IMG/VR virus record: IMGVR_UViG_3300015171_000002
Location: 44,529-108,528 of that record
DNA: 64,000 nucleotides
Strand: one strand, 5' to 3'
Source of the DNA: a virus
In this document: one piece after another, positions 4,410-45,544 of the stretch
Layout: each line of letters starts with the position of its first letter
How positions within the stretch are numbered: position 1 is the stretch's first letter
The notes under the pieces: model-generated
What the model saw: only the letters and a program-made list of their open reading frames with translations
The model's database searches: none
Told to the model about the DNA's origin: nothing
Position numbers and translations under genes: made by a program

Positions 4410-4838
4410 ATGTTACTAAAAGTCAAGAAATTGATAAAAGAAGCAATTATACCAACACGCGCAAAACATGGTGATGCTGGATTTGACTTATTTGCCTTAT
4501 CAATGGGATTTAATTCTAATTTCGTTGAATATTTTACTGGATTAGCGATAGAAATAGAATACGGCTATGTCGGGCTAATATTTCCGAGAAGTTCACAAAG
4601 TAAATATGATCTAGTTCTAGCTAATTCTGTCGGAGTGGTGGATAGTGGTTACAGAGGAGAAATATCTGTTCGTTTCAAGATGATAGAAAGTAAAGGTGAA
4701 CGAGCTAAAATTTATAATGTGGGTGACAGAATAGCTCAACTCGTTATTTTAGAATTACCGGGTGTTGTCTTACAAGAAGTAGATAAATTATCTGAATCAG
4801 AACGTGGTATTAATGGATATGGTTCAACCGGTCGCTAA
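4410..4838 (+). CDS. dut: Trimeric dUTPase
   Basis: GDAGFDL, RSS, GVVDSGYRGEI, IAQL and RGINGYGSTG motifs. Confidence 0.97.
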   Translation: MLLKVKKLIKEAIIPTRAKHGDAGFDLFALSMGFNSNFVEYFTGLAIEIEYGYVGLIFPRSSQSKYDLVLANSVGVVDSGYRGEISVRFKMIESKGERAKIYNVGDRIAQLVILELPGVVLQEVDKLSESERGINGYGSTGR

Positions 4839-4893
4839 TTTATAATAAATTCAACTATTTGACAAAAATCATAATTTGTGGTATAATATAAAA

Positions 4894-5430
4894 ATGACGC
4901 AAGAAATAGCCAAAATAGATGAAATTTCCGAAGAATCGGTCAAATTTTTTGATTTAGTTACCAGACAGGGGATTAAACCTGTCGAAATAGCTAATTCTAC
5001 TGGTTATTCTCTTAAAACAATCTATAATAGAATAAATCGTGGTCGTGAGATTGTAAATGAAGAAATTCGTAAAAATAAACCACAAATTTTAGCCGATCTT
5101 TGGAATAAATATGAGTATCTTTGGGAACAAGCTGATACGGAATGGAAAGCTAGTAAAGACCCTGCATTTCTAAAACAAATGCAATCCGTATTAGAAGCTT
5201 ACAGAAAGATGTTAGCCGTAGATGATGCACCGAAAGCACCGGTCAATGAAAAGGGTGAAACTGTTCAAAATACAATGGTTCTAGTTTTCTCTGAAGATGC
5301 TTATGCTAAAAAAGAAGCTGAATTAATTGAGTTGGAAAAAGAAGAAAAAGAAAAAGCAATTGATGGCACTTTTACCGTAACTGAAACTAGTACTAAAGTA
5401 CCATTGTCAAATGATGAAAACGGTTTATAA
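4894..5430 (+). CDS. HTH protein, candidate terminase small subunit
   Basis: N-terminal HTH-like segment (PVEIANSTGYSLKTIYNR), helical middle and acidic tail; its promoter resembles the TerL promoter. Confidence 0.45.
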   Translation: MTQEIAKIDEISEESVKFFDLVTRQGIKPVEIANSTGYSLKTIYNRINRGREIVNEEIRKNKPQILADLWNKYEYLWEQADTEWKASKDPAFLKQMQSVLEAYRKMLAVDDAPKAPVNEKGETVQNTMVLVFSEDAYAKKEAELIELEKEEKEKAIDGTFTVTETSTKVPLSNDENGL

Positions 5431-5453
5431 TGTTGTCAAGTTCGAAAATTTAT

Positions 5454-5531
5454 GTGGGCGTAATTGCACACGCTTCTAACGTGTACGCGAATAATTGGAT
5501 GTAAATGCGGGTTCAACTCCTGCCGCTCACA
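5454..5531 (+). tRNA. Atypical tRNA-Arg(UCU)-like gene with no D-arm in the normal position
   Basis: Acceptor GTGGGCG/CGCTCAC; stem ACACG/CGTGT with loop CT-TCT-AA; T-arm GCGGG-TTCAACT-CCTGC. Confidence 0.75.
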
Positions 5532-5534
5532 CTA

Positions 5535-5614
5535 TCTAGGTATATTAGAATTGTCTTCGAAACAATACTCGTATAACGGAATGAAAATGTGGGTTCAAAT
5601 CCTACTACCTAGAC
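5535..5614 (+). tRNA. Atypical tRNA-Arg(UCG)-like gene with no D-arm in the normal position
   Basis: Acceptor TCTAGGT/ACCTAGA; ATTGT-CTTCGAA-ACAAT; T-arm GTGGG-TTCAAAT-CCTAC. Confidence 0.75.
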
Positions 5615-5757
5615 AGAATTATATTCTCGCATTTGTGCGATAAACAAACCGTCTGTCTGCTTACGGGATATGGACAAATCTATAAAAACAGATTGGCCTA
5701 GACTGAGCCAGGAAAGAAGTCGTGTCCTATCTTATCGGTGGAAGGATAAACCGATAT

Positions 5758-5830
5758 GTACCTATAGCTCAAATGGCAGAGCAAGAATCTTTTAAATTCG
5801 AGGTTGTGGGATCATGGCCCATTAGGTACA
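5758..5830 (+). tRNA. tRNA-Lys(UUU)
   Basis: GTACCTA/TAGGTAC acceptor, canonical D-arm, loop CTTTTAA; degenerate T-loop. Confidence 0.85.
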
Positions 5831-5832
5831 CT

Positions 5833-6225
5833 ATGTTACCAAAACAAAAAGGTGAAATTACCGAAGCTATTATTTTAGCCAAGTTTATCGAACGTGGTGA
5901 AGTAGTTTTATTGCCGTGGGGCGATAATCAACGTTTTGATATGGTTCTATATAGAAATAATAAATTTATTAGAATTCAATGTAAAACTGGTAAAATAGTA
6001 AATGGTACAATAAGATGTAATGCAAAAAGTACTAATTGGAATACATTAGAACATTATGATTATAAGGGACAGATAGAATTTTTTGCTATTTATTGTCCAG
6101 ATAATAAAAAATGTTATATGATATCTGTAGATGACGTTGGAATAAGTCAAATTTCTTTAAGAATAGATATTCCTAAACATGGAAATCAATATTCTTTCAA
6201 ATGGGCAAAAGATTACGAAATATAA
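5833..6225 (+). CDS. PD-(D/E)XK homing endonuclease (I-Ssp6803I-like)
   Basis: KQKGEITEA...PWGDNQRFDM...RIQCKTG motif; the ATG follows the tRNA directly, and the ORF-track extension to 5722 overlaps that tRNA. Confidence 0.85.
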   Translation: MLPKQKGEITEAIILAKFIERGEVVLLPWGDNQRFDMVLYRNNKFIRIQCKTGKIVNGTIRCNAKSTNWNTLEHYDYKGQIEFFAIYCPDNKKCYMISVDDVGISQISLRIDIPKHGNQYSFKWAKDYEI

Positions 6226-6229
6226 GTAT

Positions 6230-6302
6230 GTACCTATAGCTCAATTGGTGGAGCAGATTACTCTTAATAATAAGGATATGAGTTCGAGACTCATTAGGTA
6301 CA
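6230..6302 (+). tRNA. tRNA-Lys(CUU)
   Basis: Cloverleaf with loop CTCTTAA and T-loop TTCGAGA. Confidence 0.85.
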
Positions 6303-6306
6303 CTAT

Positions 6307-6377
6307 GTTTTATTGGTCTACTGGAAGGACGATAAACTCTCAATTTATAGGCGGCAGTTCAATTCTGCCATAAAACA
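6307..6377 (+). tRNA. tRNA-Glu(CUC)
   Basis: GTTTTAT/ATAAAAC; ATAAA-CTCTCAA-TTTAT; GGCAG-TTCAATT-CTGCC. Confidence 0.85.
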
Positions 6378-6487
6378 CTATGTTATTTACTGGATTAATT
6401 ATTTTATTTTGTGCAATTGGTTATAAAAGTTGGATATTATTTTTAGTTGGTTTATATGTTATAACTAGAACAGATAAGAAATAGAAC

Positions 6488-17298: not shown

Positions 17299-18840
17299 AT
17301 GACAAAATTTAATAAATTAAATGTATCTGAAAAAGTTGGAATTGGTAATAAAGTAACTGTAAATAAAGCCGGTGGGCCAGCAATTACACTTTCTGATCGA
17401 ATGGAATTAGCTACTCTTTTATTGACTTCTTTTGTAGATGATAAATATTACGAAACTGCATCAGAACAATTAAAACGATTAAGTTCTATTTTTGATCGAT
17501 TAAATAGTAATGGTGATGCTAAATTCGCAGCTAAAGCGGCTATTTATGCTAGACATACAATGGGAATGCGTTCTATTTCTCAAGCTCTTTCGGCTAATAT
17601 TGCTGCTAAAGTAAGTGGGCAGGACTGGACTCGTTCATTTTTTGAGAAATTTCCACGGCGAGTAGATGATATGACTGAATTAGTTAGTTTCTTTCAGTCT
17701 AATTTCTCAACTGGTAAGAATAAATCAGGATATCCAAGAGCATTACCAAATGCTATGAAATATGGATTACGAAATGCTTTTGGTAAATTCAATGAATATC
17801 AGCTTGCTAAGTATCGGGCCGAGGGTAAAGAAGTTAGTCTATTAGATTTAGTAAATATTCTACATCCAGTTCCAAATGATAATAATAAAATAGCTTTAAA
17901 TAAGTTAGTTAATGGAACTTTGACAAGTACTGAAACTTGGGAAAGTCAGATTTCAAATGCTGGACAAGTAGGAGAAAATAAGGAAGAAGTAGACGAATTA
18001 AAGGGACAAGCTTTCGATAACTTAATTAGAACTAAGAAAATTGGTTATTTTGCCCTATTAAAGAATTTACGAAATATTCTACAATTATCACCAGAAAGTA
18101 TTGATGCAGCAGTAGAAATGCTAACCGATAAGAAAATGATTGAAAAAAGTTTAGTATTTCCTTTTAGATTTTTAGATGCTTATGAAGCTATTCAAGCAGA
18201 AGCGGTTGGAGGACATAGTAATAAAAATGTTCAAAAGCTTTATGCTGGTATCAACAAGGCATTAGAATTATCATTTAGTAATGTGCCTGAATTCAACGGT
18301 ACTAATTTAATTGCTGTAGATAGTTCTGGTAGTATGAGTGGTAGACCTTTCCGAATTGCGGCACTTTTCGGAGTTATTCTACTAAAACAAAACCCGGATA
18401 GTGATTTCATGCTATTTGATGATGATGCCAGATATGTAAAGAATGTCAATCTAGGTGATACTACTCTAAGTCTTGTGGAAAGTTTATATAAGTCTCAAGG
18501 TGGTGGAACTAATCTAGCTGATGTTTTCGTAAAAGCAAATAAGAAATATGATCGAGTATTTATTTTTTCTGATTGTCAGTCATGGATGGTAGCCGATAAC
18601 TATTCTAATTATTATAAAGGTGCAGTAGGAACAGTAAAAAATACATTCGCGGCATATTCAAAGAAATATGGTAAGCCGAGAGTATATAGTATAGATTTAG
18701 CAGGTCATGGAAGTGCGGAATTTAGTTCTAATGATGTAAGTACTGTAGCTGGATTTTCTGACAAAACTATAACATTACTATCTAGGATGGAGCAGGATAG
18801 AAATGCTCTAGTAAATACTATCGAAGCTGTAGAACTATAA
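17299..18840 (+). CDS. rsr: Ro60/Rsr TROVE-vWA RNA-binding protein
   Basis: NKAGGPA...LLTSF...YYET; ARHTMGMRS; YQLAKYR; L.DLVNILHP; TWES; ALLKNLRNI; FPFRFL.AY; vWA DSSGSM, GGT and SDCQ. Confidence 0.93.
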   Translation: MTKFNKLNVSEKVGIGNKVTVNKAGGPAITLSDRMELATLLLTSFVDDKYYETASEQLKRLSSIFDRLNSNGDAKFAAKAAIYARHTMGMRSISQALSANIAAKVSGQDWTRSFFEKFPRRVDDMTELVSFFQSNFSTGKNKSGYPRALPNAMKYGLRNAFGKFNEYQLAKYRAEGKEVSLLDLVNILHPVPNDNNKIALNKLVNGTLTSTETWESQISNAGQVGENKEEVDELKGQAFDNLIRTKKIGYFALLKNLRNILQLSPESIDAAVEMLTDKKMIEKSLVFPFRFLDAYEAIQAEAVGGHSNKNVQKLYAGINKALELSFSNVPEFNGTNLIAVDSSGSMSGRPFRIAALFGVILLKQNPDSDFMLFDDDARYVKNVNLGDTTLSLVESLYKSQGGGTNLADVFVKANKKYDRVFIFSDCQSWMVADNYSNYYKGAVGTVKNTFAAYSKKYGKPRVYSIDLAGHGSAEFSSNDVSTVAGFSDKTITLLSRMEQDRNALVNTIEAVEL

Positions 18841-26927: not shown

Positions 26928-28034
26928 GAAAACTAATCAATCTTTCATTGGGAACGAAATGAAAAAAATTAAAATTGTTGTCAACGATGGTTTGACCAGT
27001 TTTGGATTAAATGAAGCCGCTTATAAACAAATGGGACTTGATTTCGAAAAAGAAGTTATCTGGCCCGTTCAAAGATTATTTCCAGATTATACAGGTTTAT
27101 ATGCGGGAATGGCTTATAAAAATGATAGAAGTAATCCTAAACTTGTTAGTTGTGTTGAAACTCTGGGGCCGGAGGGTTGTGGTATTCCTGGCACTTATTT
27201 TATTATTGTTCAGATTCCAGCTAAATCTAAATGGGAAATTATTCCTAGAATAATGGGGGGCGAGGATTTGATCGTTTCAAGTAAATAAGCTCGGTAGATT
27301 ATTTATTATTCATATTTATAAAAAGGAATACGGGATAGGTAATAATAAATATTATGAATTATTCTGAGTGTATGATTGAACTAATAAAGACTTGTCCACT
27401 AAAAGAATATCCAGATAATAAAATAAATTGGTCACTGGCTGAAATCAATAGAGATTATATTCTGTCCTGTTGGGATAGTGAACTGCTAACAATGGCTAAC
27501 ATAGCACTTTTTGAAACTGAATTAAATACTGATTATATGCTCATCGTTGGTTCCAGATATGGCACAATGAACGTTTTAGATAATACTAGATTGGTGCAGG
27601 TACGTTCTTATTATCTTTGGACTGGACTAATGTTTGGGCCATCTACACAAAAGAAAAGACAATTCAGTTTTGAAATAAGTGCTGTTGCCAATAAAAAAGG
27701 TATTAGTTTTCAGAATAGCATAGATAAAAGAACACATCGTGGCGAAACTGGAATTATTTTTTCAAAACTGAGTCAGGTTTTGAATTCTTTCTATTCCAGA
27801 CCAGAAATAGAAAAACTTGAGTCTGAGTCCTGATTTAGATAATATAACCAAAACTGGATATACTTTTATTATGTAAAATACCCTAAAAATTTCGGTTAGA
27901 ATCGCGTTGGGAAACGGTTAGAAAAACTGGAAATATTATTCGCTTTCGTGAAATTAGTCACAACCCGGTCAGGTCGGAAAATTCAAACCATTTTCTAACT
28001 TGACAATTTTTTTATTTTGTGGGATACTTTCGAA

Positions 28035-28418
28035 ATGGAAATTAATTTGTTGCGCCCATTTGAAATCTGTAGAAAACTCTCTTATCTTAGTGAATTCGAT
28101 AAGAGATTCAAAATGTCAGCAATTATAATGCGGCGTGGTCATATTATCGGAATGGGAATAAATAAACTAAAAACTCAGGGAGCTAAATATCCTAATCTTT
28201 TTAGTTGTCATGCCGAATTGTCAGCTATTATAAATTCTAAACCATATAAAAATGATTTGAACGGAACAGAAATATTTATTTATCGGGAAACGGCTGATTT
28301 TGTTCCTGCTATGGCTAAACCCTGTAATACTTGTTTTGGGGCAATTCTGGAAGCTGAAATAAAAACTATTTGGTATTCTATAAATATTTGGCCTTATTAC
28401 GATAGAATGGAAATCTAA
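28035..28418 (+). CDS. Zn-dependent cytidine/dCMP-deaminase-fold protein
   Basis: HAE and KPCNTC motifs. Confidence 0.8.
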   Translation: MEINLLRPFEICRKLSYLSEFDKRFKMSAIIMRRGHIIGMGINKLKTQGAKYPNLFSCHAELSAIINSKPYKNDLNGTEIFIYRETADFVPAMAKPCNTCFGAILEAEIKTIWYSINIWPYYDRMEI

Positions 28419-28739: not shown

Positions 28740-29819
28740 ATGAAACTGCCTTTTTTGCCGTCTGAAGATGAATTTTATATAAAGGATGTGATGATTGGTG
28801 AAACAGCCTGTATTCTGATTACTCCTAAAATCAGCGCACATTGGGATTCTGAGAATGTTATTTTTCGTTCTAGTGTTTGGAATAAAGAAACTGGTGAATT
28901 AGTTAGTCCATCTTTCAAGAAATTTCATAATTTAGGTGAAGCACCGGATTTATTTCCTTTACCATCTAATTTAAATAAATCATCTTTTATTGAAAAGATT
29001 GATGGTTCAACATTGATTGTTTCTTGGTATAGTTATAATCAGATTATTCGGACTAGGGGTACTGTAGATGCTAGACAAATGGACAACGGCGCTGAAATAG
29101 ATTTATTGATTGAAAAATATCCACTGGCATTCAAGTTTCATAATGGGCAAAATACTTTTATTTTTGAATGGGTTACTCCTGCTAATCGAATTGTAGTGGA
29201 TTATAAAGAGCCAGATATGATTTTTATCGGCGCAATTAATCACCGTGATTATTCTTACTGGACACAAGCACAATTAGATTATTTAGCCCAAGAAAATGGT
29301 TATAAACGTCCACAACGCTATTTTGTAAAAAATAGTACTGAACTAATCGATTTAGTTACTGATTTTCAGGATAAAGAAGGTATTGTAGTTTATTATAATA
29401 ATGATCAAAACATGCGGAAAGTAAAGAGTCCACGTTATCTTGCACTTCATACGCTAAAGAATATGGCCGATAGTGATAAAGCTATGGTAGATTTATTCAT
29501 GGAATATCAGATGCCGGTTTATTCTGATTTTATGAAAATGCTGGAAGGTGATTACGATTATGAAATCGCACAATTTCTAATTGGAAAAGTTTCTAAAATC
29601 TGTGATTCATTCAAAGAGTACCAAAAATTTTATAATCATATTGTCGGTTTTGTAGATAATATTCGTTCTATGCCAACACGAAAGGAACAGGCATTAAAAA
29701 TTCAATCTGCTTATGGAAATACTATTCGTTCTGGTATGGCTTTTTCTATTCTGGATAATAAAGAAATTGATCAAAGAAAAATAAAACAGATTCTTTTACA
29801 GATGATGGCGAAGGTGTAG
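28740..29819 (+). CDS. RNA ligase 1 (T4 RnlA-like)
   Basis: KKFHNLGE, EKIDGS motif I, TRG, FEW, EGIVV and KVKS motifs. Confidence 0.88.
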   Translation: MKLPFLPSEDEFYIKDVMIGETACILITPKISAHWDSENVIFRSSVWNKETGELVSPSFKKFHNLGEAPDLFPLPSNLNKSSFIEKIDGSTLIVSWYSYNQIIRTRGTVDARQMDNGAEIDLLIEKYPLAFKFHNGQNTFIFEWVTPANRIVVDYKEPDMIFIGAINHRDYSYWTQAQLDYLAQENGYKRPQRYFVKNSTELIDLVTDFQDKEGIVVYYNNDQNMRKVKSPRYLALHTLKNMADSDKAMVDLFMEYQMPVYSDFMKMLEGDYDYEIAQFLIGKVSKICDSFKEYQKFYNHIVGFVDNIRSMPTRKEQALKIQSAYGNTIRSGMAFSILDNKEIDQRKIKQILLQMMAKV

Positions 29820-31155: not shown

Positions 31156-31836
31156 ATGAAATTTTATAAGGTTGGTGGTTTTGTACGTGATCAAATTATG
31201 GGAATAAAATCTCACGATTTAGATTATGCCGTGGAAGCCGAATCTTATGATGAGATGAGAGATTATATTAGTTCTCATGGTAAGATATATCTCGAAACAC
31301 CGGAATTCTACACAATCCGGGGGAAAATGCCTGGAATGGGTGATTGTGATTTTGTTTTATGTCGTAAAGAAAGTGATTATACTGATGGTCGGCATCCTGA
31401 TAAAGTAGAAGTAGGAACTATTCTGGATGATTTGGCTAGACGTGATTTTACTATGAATGCCATTGCTATTGATGAAGATGGTAATTATATTGATCCATTT
31501 GAAGGTATCGCGCATATTAAAAATAAAGCAATTATTTGTGTGGGTGATACTGAAACACAATTAAAACAAGATGCTTTAAGAATGATTCGTGCTGTTCGCC
31601 TTTCTGTAACTAAAAGAATGAATATCGGTTATGAAATTGATCATTTTTTGAGAAATGGTTATAATTCTTTGTTACTGGATAATATTTCAAACGATAGAAT
31701 TAAAGATGAAATAAATAAAATGTGGGAATTCGATCCATTTAATGCCTTTATTGCCATGCGACGTTATAGTACTATGTTTGAATATATTTTCCAAACAAAA
31801 GATATTTGGATGAAAGCGACATTAGAAAAGAGATAA
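31156..31836 (+). CDS. cca: Class II tRNA nucleotidyltransferase (CCA-adding/poly(A) polymerase head domain)
   Basis: VGGFVRD, DLD, DDLARRDFTMNAIA, DPF.G and DALRMIRAVR motifs. Confidence 0.92.
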   Translation: MKFYKVGGFVRDQIMGIKSHDLDYAVEAESYDEMRDYISSHGKIYLETPEFYTIRGKMPGMGDCDFVLCRKESDYTDGRHPDKVEVGTILDDLARRDFTMNAIAIDEDGNYIDPFEGIAHIKNKAIICVGDTETQLKQDALRMIRAVRLSVTKRMNIGYEIDHFLRNGYNSLLLDNISNDRIKDEINKMWEFDPFNAFIAMRRYSTMFEYIFQTKDIWMKATLEKR

Positions 31837-31837
31837 T

Positions 31838-32875
31838 ATGGCAAGTGCAACTATTCAACGAATTAAAGATATTCAACCTATTCCCGATGCTGATAAAATT
31901 GAATTAGCAACAGTAATGGGTTGGCAACTTGTAACTGCTAAAGAAAATAATTTCAAAGCAAATGATTTTGTTATATATGTAGAAATCGACTCTATCACTG
32001 AGGATAGACCAGAATACGAATTCTTGCGTGATCGAAATTTCAGAATAAAAACAATTAAATTGCGTGGTCAGATTAGTCAGGGATTAATTCTACCTGTTAG
32101 TTTATTGGGTGATGCCTGGATTGATTATACTGAAAATGGCATAGATATGCTTTATCCTGTTGGAAATGGATTATGGGCGAATGTACCTTATCCACATTAT
32201 AATGAAGGTGATGATGTTTCTGAGATTCTAGGTATTAAACATTATGAAAAACCATTACCATTAGAATTATCTGGAATGGCAATTGGGAGTTTTCCTAGTT
32301 TCTTATCTCGAACAGATGAAGATATGGTACAATCTTGTTTGCGAAAATTAGATGCTTTGCAAGGTAAGCCATATTATATTACTGTCAAAGTTGATGGTAT
32401 GTCTGCAACGTTCTATAAATGGGAGGAAAGATTCGGGGTTTGTTCGCGTAATTTGGAACTAAAAGAGCATGAAAATAATGTATTCTGGAAATTAGCTCAT
32501 AAATATAGTCTGGAAACGATAAAGGATGGTATCTATCTACAGGGTGAGGTAGCAGGCCCAGGCATACAAAAAAATAAACTAGGATTAAAAGAGCCAGATT
32601 TATTTATTTTCAATGTAAAACATATTCAAGGCAATAAACAAATTTCTTTTACTGAAATGGTGCAAACCTTAGAATATCCCGGCAAATGTAAAATGGTTCC
32701 AGTTTTAGCATCTGGTGATAATTTCTCATTGAAATTAAATGATTTAATTGAATTAGCCAATCATGTAAAATATGATAATGGAGCCGCCGCAGAAGGTATT
32801 GTAGTCAGATCACAAGATGGATTGATTAGTTTTAAATGTATGAATAATAATTATTTACTGAAAAATGGAGAATAA
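31838..32875 (+). CDS. RNA ligase, DRB0094/Rnl2-like family with N-terminal OB domain
   Basis: IQPIPDADKIELA...RIKTIKLRGQISQGL; KVDG motif I, QGE, GPGIQKN, EGIV and FK motifs. Confidence 0.92.
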   Translation: MASATIQRIKDIQPIPDADKIELATVMGWQLVTAKENNFKANDFVIYVEIDSITEDRPEYEFLRDRNFRIKTIKLRGQISQGLILPVSLLGDAWIDYTENGIDMLYPVGNGLWANVPYPHYNEGDDVSEILGIKHYEKPLPLELSGMAIGSFPSFLSRTDEDMVQSCLRKLDALQGKPYYITVKVDGMSATFYKWEERFGVCSRNLELKEHENNVFWKLAHKYSLETIKDGIYLQGEVAGPGIQKNKLGLKEPDLFIFNVKHIQGNKQISFTEMVQTLEYPGKCKMVPVLASGDNFSLKLNDLIELANHVKYDNGAAAEGIVVRSQDGLISFKCMNNNYLLKNGE

Positions 32876-37644: not shown

Positions 37645-37729
37645 CGGGCATTATGCACTTTACTCTTATAAGGTAAGCTCATCATAAGGTGCTATGGTTG
37701 CAACGAAAGTTCGATTCTTTCATGCCCGA
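37645..37729 (+). tRNA. Atypical tRNA-Ile(UAU)-like gene with no D-arm in the normal position
   Basis: CGGGCAT/ATGCCCG; TTACT-CTTATAA-GGTAA; GAAAG-TTCGATT-CTTTC; A-CTA trailer like the other tRNAs. Confidence 0.72.
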
Positions 37730-44521: not shown

Positions 44522-45544
44522 ATGTCTCTCAAAGCTAAGGGAAATGCGGTTAAAGTAACAGGTTTAGGATTTGGTAAGCAGAAAGATATGGCGTCTCAGA
44601 ATTTTATCGGAGGCGAGCGTTGGATGCAACATATTGAAAGAGGTACACTTAAGATTAATCCCGAATTGGCTACGATGTCATTAGATGATATCCTAACCAG
44701 TGGTGGCCTAAATTTTGGTGTACTTAAATCTCAAACATTTTATAAATCCGCTGTTTCTGGATTAGAAATTCCTAGCCGGGGTTATTCTGTTTATCGGACT
44801 GATACTGATGTAGAATTGGGACATGGATTTAGTGATGGTTATCAGCCTATTTCCTATCCCGATATTCTTTCTCAGTTCTTTCAAAATGCTTTGGATTTGG
44901 GTAATATCCCGACTCGTGCAATTAGTTTTGATAATGGGGCCAAAGGTGCCATTCAGTTTGCAATGCCGCAGGAATATCTAATTGCGGATCGACCACATAA
45001 GACATTTTTGAATTTTTATTCCAGCCATGATGGTACTTATGGCGTTACCATGAATGAATGTGATATTTGTATTCTTTGTGGTAATACCTTTGCTTATTCT
45101 TTCCGCGATACAAGTGCAAAGTGGACGGTAAAGCATACCGTAAATATGCAATCTAAGATTAATGATATTCGGGAAAAGATTCTTATTAGTACGGAATCTC
45201 AACAAGGATATTATTTCAATCTGGATAAGATGGCAGCCAAGAAGGTTAGTTTTCAGGATAAGAATAATTTCCTGATGGCTATGTTTCCAGATGGCGATAT
45301 CAAAGAAAGTGGTAAAGTAAATCAAGGCCCGGCTAATCAGCGTATTCAATTAGATGATGCAATTAGTACCACGGTTAATGAGCGGAATAGCGCCGATACT
45401 ACATTTTATGATCTATTGCAGGGTGCATTTCGCCAGCAAAGTTATAAGACTCAAAATCGTGGCGGTGATGCTCAATTCGGTTATGTGATGAAGTCAATAG
45501 TAAATCAAAACGCTTATGATTACGTCACGGAGGCTATGAAATAA
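44522..45544 (+). CDS. DUF932 (TIGR03299-like) phage protein
   Basis: YRTDT..ELG....YQP, SHDG, CGN and HT motifs; SD before ATG at 44522. Confidence 0.75.
   Translation: MSLKAKGNAVKVTGLGFGKQKDMASQNFIGGERWMQHIERGTLKINPELATMSLDDILTSGGLNFGVLKSQTFYKSAVSGLEIPSRGYSVYRTDTDVELGHGFSDGYQPISYPDILSQFFQNALDLGNIPTRAISFDNGAKGAIQFAMPQEYLIADRPHKTFLNFYSSHDGTYGVTMNECDICILCGNTFAYSFRDTSAKWTVKHTVNMQSKINDIREKILISTESQQGYYFNLDKMAAKKVSFQDKNNFLMAMFPDGDIKESGKVNQGPANQRIQLDDAISTTVNERNSADTTFYDLLQGAFRQQSYKTQNRGGDAQFGYVMKSIVNQNAYDYVTEAMK

Follow-up and report, generated by a model that had tools for sequence, protein, structure and literature searches.

Layout of two tRNA-Arg-like genes

The window analysed in this study is a stretch of 64,000 nucleotides from a virus record (IMGVR_UViG_3300015171_000002, positions 44,529 to 108,528), and the full record contains 112,017 bases, is 93% complete and has a G+C content of 33%. 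Two tRNA-Arg-like genes with the anticodons UCU (gene 1) and UCG (gene 2) were read within positions 5300-5800 of the window, where they lie head-to-tail, 4 nt apart, and head a tRNA array (Table 1). The -10 box of a candidate promoter ends 22 nt 5' of gene 1. An earlier note on this DNA had described a 7-bp acceptor stem, a canonical T arm and a canonical 7-nt anticodon loop, and all of these were seen in both genes; the anticodon loops have U33 and a purine at position 37 and the T loops fit the form UUCRANY. The anticodon stem begins 7 nt past the acceptor strand in both genes and therefore leaves no space for a D hairpin, so that the lack of a D arm stood as previously described while the spacing of about 8 nt was corrected to 7. 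A GG-containing D-loop-like segment was likewise located between the anticodon and T arms, in a stretch of 22 nt in both genes, and the motif 3' of the anticodon arm reads UAAUUGGA ... AAAU in gene 1 and UAACGGA ... AAAU in gene 2.

Table 1. Positions in the window of the two predicted tRNA-Arg genes, their parts and a candidate promoter
Feature	Position	Strand	Description
Sigma-70-like candidate promoter	5404..5431	+	TTGTCA, 16-nt spacer, TATAAT; 11/12 consensus match only
Gene 1, predicted rewired tRNA-Arg(UCU)	5454..5531	+	78 nt including discriminator A; no encoded CCA; Rfam tRNA 31.1 bits
Gene 1 acceptor stem	5454-5460/5524-5530	+	7 bp, one G-U
Gene 1 linker UAAUUGC	5461..5467	+	U8, A9, putative strand replacing D-stem 22-25, position 26
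Gene 1 anticodon arm	5468..5484	+	Stem 5468-5472/5480-5484, loop CUUCUAA, anticodon TCT 5475-5477
Gene 1 putative D-stem partner strand GAAU	5489-5492	+	5' of D-loop-like AAUUGGA
Gene 1 D-loop-like AAUUGGA	5493-5499	+	A14-, A15-, G18-, G19- and A20-like bases; span 5489..5499 with partner strand
Gene 1 connector UGUAAAU	5500..5506	+	Conserved A-U end before T stem; final U in place of position 48
Gene 1 T arm	5507..5523	+	GCGGG / UUCAACU / CCUGC
Gene 2, predicted rewired tRNA-Arg(UCG)	5536..5613	+	78 nt including discriminator A; Rfam tRNA 37.5 bits
Gene 2 acceptor stem	5536-5542/5606-5612	+	7 bp
Gene 2 linker UAUUAGA	5543..5549	+	U8, A9, putative strand replacing D-stem 22-25, position 26
Gene 2 anticodon arm	5550..5566	+	Stem 5550-5554/5562-5566, loop CUUCGAA, anticodon TCG 5557-5559
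Gene 2 putative D-stem partner strand GUAU (5571-5574), then D-loop-like AACGGA (5575-5580)	5571..5580	+	
Gene 2 connector AUGAAAAU	5581..5588	+	Conserved A-U end before T stem
Gene 2 T arm	5589..5605	+	GUGGG / UUCAAAU / CCUAC

The Rfam tRNA model RF00005 aligned end to end with both genes at the scores listed in Table 1 against a gathering cut-off of 29 bits. Both alignments have 4 nt in place of 15 D-arm positions and a 19-nt insertion in the variable region, and neither gene has the D hairpin between acceptor and anticodon arms of the four-arm cloverleaf of RF00005. ARAGORN, which had been expected to miss the pair, called 19 tRNAs in the window at default settings with neither gene among them, and in relaxed mode it called gene 2 wrongly, assigning it a 4-base anticodon.

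Genomic context

The absence of an ordinary tRNA-Arg from the window, as reported previously, extends to the whole record after searches with ARAGORN and Rfam. The previous figure of 18 other amino acids covered was too high, since the same programs counted 16 in the window and 17 with a tRNA-Gln outside it; tRNA-Ala and tRNA-His were undetected by ARAGORN and Rfam in the whole record. A weak tRNA-like match of 20.8 bits was located at 17118-17181. Codon counts over 86 long open reading frames gave AGA as 49%, CGU as 21% and CGA as 15% of Arg codons, and the UCU and UCG anticodons therefore cover the main Arg codons of the phage. Most tRNAs of the phage do not carry an encoded CCA, and a 226-aa CCA-type nucleotidyltransferase is encoded.

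RNA-related proteins are encoded at window positions 9361-10242, 17299-18840, 28017-28418, 28740-29819, 31156-31836 and 31838-32875, and their products include a polynucleotide kinase-phosphatase (Pnkp), a Ro60-like TROVE protein, a zinc deaminase, a T4 Rnl1-type RNA ligase, the head domain of a CCA-type nucleotidyltransferase and a second RNA ligase. Judged from these predicted products, the set amounts to a tRNA repair and maturation kit. Downstream of the pair and between two tRNA-Lys genes is an open reading frame with a PD-(D/E)XK endonuclease domain (5722-6225, plus strand; E 1e-32), the true start of which is probably later because the listed start overlaps tRNA-Lys(UUU).

The terminase of the phage is at most 32% identical to that of any cultured phage. 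A megablast of window positions 5000-6400 against cultured phages returned no match, nor did a search of viral contigs with the upstream open reading frame (4876-5430). The sequencing runs containing the window sequence were all of soil metagenome DNA, and it was found in no RNA run.

A family of tRNA-Arg genes with the same layout

Viral contigs were scanned for an Arg anticodon loop located 26-36 nt 5' of a T loop with the stems checked by script, and further members came from another scan that used the D-loop-like motif as its anchor. At least 57 unique family members with a linker of 7 or 8 nt were gathered among the matches listed, and 36 of the 57 have an encoded CCA. The anticodons of these 57 are all Arg anticodons (UCU 31, UCG 15, ACG 9 and CCU 2). 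A covariance model (R2) trained on 37 homologs from other contigs, the window genes being left out, scored gene 1 at 63.7 bits (E 2e-15) and gene 2 at 64.5 bits (E 1.2e-15) while ordinary tRNAs of the window reached at most 26 bits.

An alignment of 39 sequences (A2), restricted to those with a set T-loop pattern and an Arg anticodon loop, had 98.9% of cells paired in the acceptor stem, 96.4% in the anticodon stem and 99.5% in the T stem. Changes on both sides were found at 14 of the 17 pairs of these three stems. The possibility raised earlier that the genes are simple decaying deletions of ordinary tRNAs did not hold up, as the stems were kept by compensatory change across homologs and the held-out model scored both genes at about 64 bits. 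On the aligned sequences the existence of the family and of its conserved pairing is not in doubt.

Distribution in viruses and cellular genomes

Among the matches listed, family members made up 66 of 123 in viral contigs versus about 8 of 121 in bacterial and archaeal genomes. Several of the members in cellular genomes were located in arrays of 10-25 tRNA genes on contigs of metagenome-assembled genomes, which may be prophage or cellular DNA. By these counts the family is mainly viral, and it is not claimed to be phage-only. One Blastocatellia contig contains 25 tRNA genes within 3 kb (L233:2000-5100), where a rewired Arg(UCU) gene at 4746-4822 sits at regular spacing between a tRNA-Thr and a 92-nt tRNA-Ile(UAU), and ordinary Arg(UCG) and Arg(GCG) genes are present in the same array.

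Two Klebsiella phages also carry the layout. One family member (L024) is identical to a sequence of Klebsiella phage KNP2, and a relative of KNP2, the cultured Klebsiella phage vB_KpnM_KB57 (NC_028659.1), has a rewired tRNA-Arg(UCU) gene at about 64096-64174 (L464:1459-1537, minus strand; 72.8 bits with the family model). The KB57 gene lies between an annotated tRNA-Cys and an annotated tRNA-Leu and is itself unannotated in the RefSeq record. If the family consists of working tRNAs, phage tRNA totals would be underestimated; ARAGORN misses rewired genes and the KB57 copy went unannotated. The 'RNA' runs matching the KNP2 region were wastewater libraries stored as contigs, with even cover across the whole 600 bases; this even cover looks like DNA and therefore indicates presence rather than transcription.

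Pairing between the 5' linker and the segment 3' of the anticodon arm

The conserved pairing of the middle segment was found to be long-range. In A2 the linker position 4 pairs in 39 of 39 sequences (pair 11-45; CG 28, UA 6, GC 5) and linker position 5 in 37 of 38 (pair 12-44; GC 17, CG 14, UA 4, AU 2), and their partners are the two bases directly 5' of the UAA motif. The flanking pairs are weaker, with the inward pair 13-43 formed in 18 of 39 sequences and the outer pair 10-46 in 9 of 39, so that the helix is short and only two pairs are always kept across A2. A motif-anchored count made without an assumed structure gave the same diagonal of pairing. In an all-versus-all scan of 3,486 column pairs using mutual information with average-product correction, 11-45 and 12-44 ranked 6 and 10, and the rest of the top 15 consisted only of pairs in the acceptor, anticodon and T stems. 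The conserved pairing joins the 5' linker to the bases before UAAnnGGA, and the D-stem it forms would therefore enclose the anticodon arm.

Gene 1 has the long-range pairs A5463-U5492, U5464-A5491 and U5465-A5490 with a mismatch of G5466 and G5489, and in an alternative register shifted by one it can form UUGC/GCGA (4 bp). Gene 2 has U5546-A5573 and A5547-U5572, with U5545/U5574 and G5548/G5571 unpaired. The two genes therefore differ by a double change at pair 12-44, which is U-A in gene 1 and A-U in gene 2, and they share a G/G mismatch at the 10-25-like position; the U/U of gene 2 falls at the 13-22-like position. Energy folding of the single RNAs recovered the three classical stems with an unstable and varying middle segment (z-scores -1.6 to -2.0), and the long-range helix was absent from the predictions for both RNAs.

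The local D-like hairpin proposed in the earlier note can be drawn in gene 2 as UCGU/AUGA (4 bp, one G-U) and in gene 1 as a weaker version of 3 bp with two G-U pairs. As a conserved feature it was rejected: its four pairs were formed in 33% of cells across the 39 homologs, and the scan of 3,486 column pairs gave none of the covariation anticipated for it. The proposed 'arm-swapped' order was accordingly retained in part, as the rearranged chain is borne out by the GG segment lying 3' of the anticodon arm and the local D-like arm is not.

Core positions and arginine identity

Core positions were counted in a neutral subset of 37 unique sequences chosen by anticodon loop, spacing, T loop and stems only. 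The linker begins with UA in 37 of 37 of these sequences, the motif UA(A/G/U)N0-4GGA is present in 37 of 37 and A-U stands directly before the T stem in 31 of 37. In the family as a whole the near-invariant positions are U8, A9, U-A-A, the GG with the A that follows it, and the A-U preceding the T stem. The D loop of the E. coli tRNA-Arg is AGCUGGAUA.

In ordinary tRNAs positions 15 and 48 form the Levitt pair. The 15-like and 48-like bases of the family covary in the same manner, with A found together with U in 51 Arg genes (two motif mis-reads were corrected by hand) and G together with C in 4 Arg and 5 rewired Ile genes, with 3 exceptions to the rule. Perhaps two lineages account for the G-C cases, which therefore represent few independent events, and as a sign of a rebuilt core the covariation is suggestive, not conclusive.

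The main determinants of bacterial ArgRS are A20 and C35, with U or G at position 36, and U20 is a listed Ile determinant (PMC9976931). The Arg family keeps an A20-like A after GG together with C35 and U/G36, and in rewired Ile(UAU) relatives GGU takes the place of the GGA seen in the Arg genes.

Other unusual tRNA genes

A third gene without a D hairpin is located in the window at 37645-37729 (plus strand) and has the anticodon UAU (Ile, codon AUA). It scored 30.8 bits with the Rfam tRNA model and 27.1 bits with the Arg family model, and no close homolog was found among 118 scanned loci. Its linker is 8 nt (UAUGCACU), in which GCAC can pair with GUGC just 5' of a UAUGG motif, and the resulting long-range stem, at 4-5 bp, is stronger than its counterpart in those for Arg. 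A sequence resembling a CAU anticodon loop, AUCAUAA, occurs in the intervening 12 nt.

Rewired tRNA-Ile(UAU) genes with the layout of the Arg family were found in viral contigs (L381, L377, L400, L435, L398, L404 and L427), and the design is therefore not limited to arginine. Their linkers are UAUCGGC or UAUCCCC and pair with CCG or GGG before GUAGCGGU. A different arrangement was seen in phage tRNA-Ile(UAU) genes at L350, L356, L358, L370, L380 and about 25 more loci, which combine a normal D arm with an additional hairpin in the variable region; the sequence looped out by this hairpin, CAGAUUAG, resembles the anticodon loop of ordinary tRNA-Ile(GAU).

A second type of gene for Arg(UCU) that lacks a D hairpin was found at L007, L043, L071, L030, L081, L045 and other loci. 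It has a linker of 9-10 nt that starts with G and contains CCC, an apparent 4-bp T stem and an 8-bp acceptor stem, and its long segment is a covarying hairpin (for example UGGC/GCCA versus UGAC/GUCA) with a loop carrying GGG-A-GGA. If the CCC pairs with the GGG, the fold would be a pseudoknot. One rewired member at L114 (plus strand, gene starting GCCTTAG) has the anticodon stem CCUGU/ACAGG around a loop of 8 nt, UGUUCUAA, rather than 7.

Proposed structure and function

The two window genes are best explained as functional tRNA-Arg isoacceptors in which the D-stem is split and pairs at long range, and we put the probability of this reading at roughly two in three from the sequence comparisons described above. 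The pairing and the conserved positions are observed directly in the alignments. In the proposed chain order the acceptor strand, U8, A9 and a strand replacing positions 22-25 would be followed directly by the anticodon arm, and the 10-13-like strand and the D loop (UAAnnGGA, corresponding to 13, A14, A15, G18, G19 and A20) would lie 3' of the anticodon arm, with a connector ending in A-U48 joining the D loop to the T stem. The anticodon arm would thus be nested inside the D-stem, and the secondary structure would be a three-way junction, not a four-arm cloverleaf. The usual L-shaped core would be rebuilt through U8-A14, 15-48 and the contact of G18G19 with the T loop. In ordinary tRNA the strand 10-13 stacks as a continuation of the anticodon-stem strand 39-43, which makes direct joining at this point, and of position 9 to 22, geometrically plausible. 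The available evidence suggests a normal tRNA core rebuilt with an altered chain order.

Such tRNAs would probably be charged by the host ArgRS via the retained A20 and C35 and would supply the commonest Arg codon of the phage. The UCU anticodon would read AGA and AGG, and the UCG anticodon CGA and CGG and possibly more of the CGN codons. The earlier note had offered the decoding of AGA/CGA alongside a role as a decoy or an anticodon-nuclease-resistant mimic; decoding is the best-supported predicted role, given the Arg anticodons and identity bases and the lack of an ordinary tRNA-Arg in the phage. The Arg codon usage, the candidate promoter and the CCA-type enzyme are, as circumstantial evidence, in keeping with working tRNAs.

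Alternative explanations

It is conceivable, if rather unlikely, that the genes encode truly D-armless, flexible tRNA-Arg molecules of the mitochondrial type that translate with a slightly extended anticodon stem, the long segment being a floppy connector and the L-shaped core not being rebuilt. The conservation of only 2-3 long-range pairs and the absence of a helix there in folding programs are consistent with this, as is the activity of an engineered tRNA without a D arm in E. coli as well as in a purified translation system (PMC11551756). A loose connector would, however, have no need to conserve U8, A9, UAA, the GG with its following A and the AU 5' of the T stem so strictly, or to keep the 15-like base covarying with the 48-like base, and the T loop is fully canonical, unlike those of mitochondrial armless tRNAs. 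A four-arm molecule with a local D-like hairpin between the anticodon and T arms would keep the pairs that can be drawn in genes 1 and 2. Relatives able to form a small hairpin use a different register, however, and together with the low fraction of paired cells and the missing covariation signal this makes such a molecule very improbable.

The remaining possibilities concern whether the RNAs decode. A tRNA-shaped, non-decoding RNA that serves as a decoy, diverting an anticodon nuclease or defence sensor of the host, or as a regulatory tRNA mimic, would fit a conflict over tRNAs of the kind that the tRNA repair set of the phage (Pnkp, two RNA ligases and a CCA-type enzyme) brings to mind. We consider it unlikely, as the gathered family combines only Arg anticodons with Arg identity bases and the phage, whose most used Arg codon is AGA, has no other tRNA-Arg; a decoy would also have no need for four Arg anticodons or for a 7-bp acceptor with, in many members, an encoded CCA. 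Decay of ordinary tRNA-Arg genes after a deletion of the D arm would account for the low Rfam scores and for the standard finders missing or mis-calling both genes, and is almost certainly wrong: dozens of distinct sequences occur on unrelated viral contigs with stems kept by compensatory changes, invariant core motifs and very high family-model scores, a degree of conservation that refutes it.

A tentative suggestion, which we regard as doubtful, is that the rewiring is adaptive rather than neutral, a counter-defence in which half of the D arm is moved to yield tRNAs that the host ArgRS can still charge via A20 and C35 and that escape host or phage factors reading the ordinary D arm or core. 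The evaded factor could be, for example, a defence nuclease that cuts tRNAs, a modification enzyme or a decay pathway. The Arg, Ile and other tRNAs would then be natural non-cloverleaf tRNAs acting on bacterial ribosomes, with the phage repair kit alongside.

Comparison with known tRNAs

Circularly permuted tRNA genes of Cyanidioschyzon merolae also have a rearranged order of parts, and their transcripts are processed back to an ordinary cloverleaf. In contrast, there is no sign of re-joining in the phage family, in which the altered order would persist in the mature chain itself. The likeness to ordinary class I tRNA-Arg (RF00005) includes the 7-bp acceptor, the 5-bp anticodon stem with the loop CU-NCK-AA, the 5-bp T stem, the T loop UUCRANU, U8, a D-loop-like A-R-Y-Y-G-G-A with A20 and the Arg anticodons. 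The phage family differs from it in having the 5' strand of the D-stem and the D loop 3' of the anticodon arm, no D hairpin and a 'variable region' of 19-26 nt.

The D-armless mitochondrial tRNA-Ser (AGY/UCU) of mammals and nematodes is similar in having a connector of 5-7 nt between acceptor and anticodon and no D hairpin (PMC7609411, PMC9427863). These tRNAs have no G18G19/T-loop elbow, degenerate T loops, short variable regions and a flexible Y or boomerang shape (PMC7609411, PMC9427863), whereas the window genes keep the GG motif and a canonical T loop and have a segment of 22 nt. Every core motif is kept in the phage family, which, unlike the mitochondrial type, would serve the bacterial translation apparatus. 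The engineered D-armless 'mini HisT' was accepted by the bacterial synthetase, EF-Tu and the ribosome in E. coli (PMC11551756), and it differs in being artificial, with the D arm deleted without replacement, unstable and dependent on a host pnp mutation (PMC11551756).

Class II tRNAs and allo-tRNAs, the latter also found in phages, resemble the window genes in having a long insertion between the anticodon and T arms (PMC5389517). In those molecules the insertion is a self-contained hairpin and the D arm is normal, and allo-tRNAs have an 8/4 or 9/3 split of acceptor and T stems (PMC5389517), whereas the window genes have a 7/5 split, no D arm and a non-hairpin insertion that pairs with the 5' linker. 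All known bacterial tRNAs have been called cloverleaves, with natural armless tRNAs restricted to mitochondria (PMC11551756), and phages are unmentioned in a 2020 review of non-canonical tRNAs. A description of the present layout was not found in the full-text literature on D-armless, rearranged or unusual phage tRNAs, in a search that was not exhaustive of print.

Implications

The window represents a clean case, in which tandem rewired isoacceptors are the only predicted Arg tRNAs in a phage with a nearly full tRNA set. If the proposed reading is true, the cloverleaf would not be required for translation in bacteria. Such genes would also be a natural means of finding out on which tRNA contacts ArgRS, RNase P, EF-Tu and the ribosome depend, and they would provide new scaffolds for engineered tRNAs.
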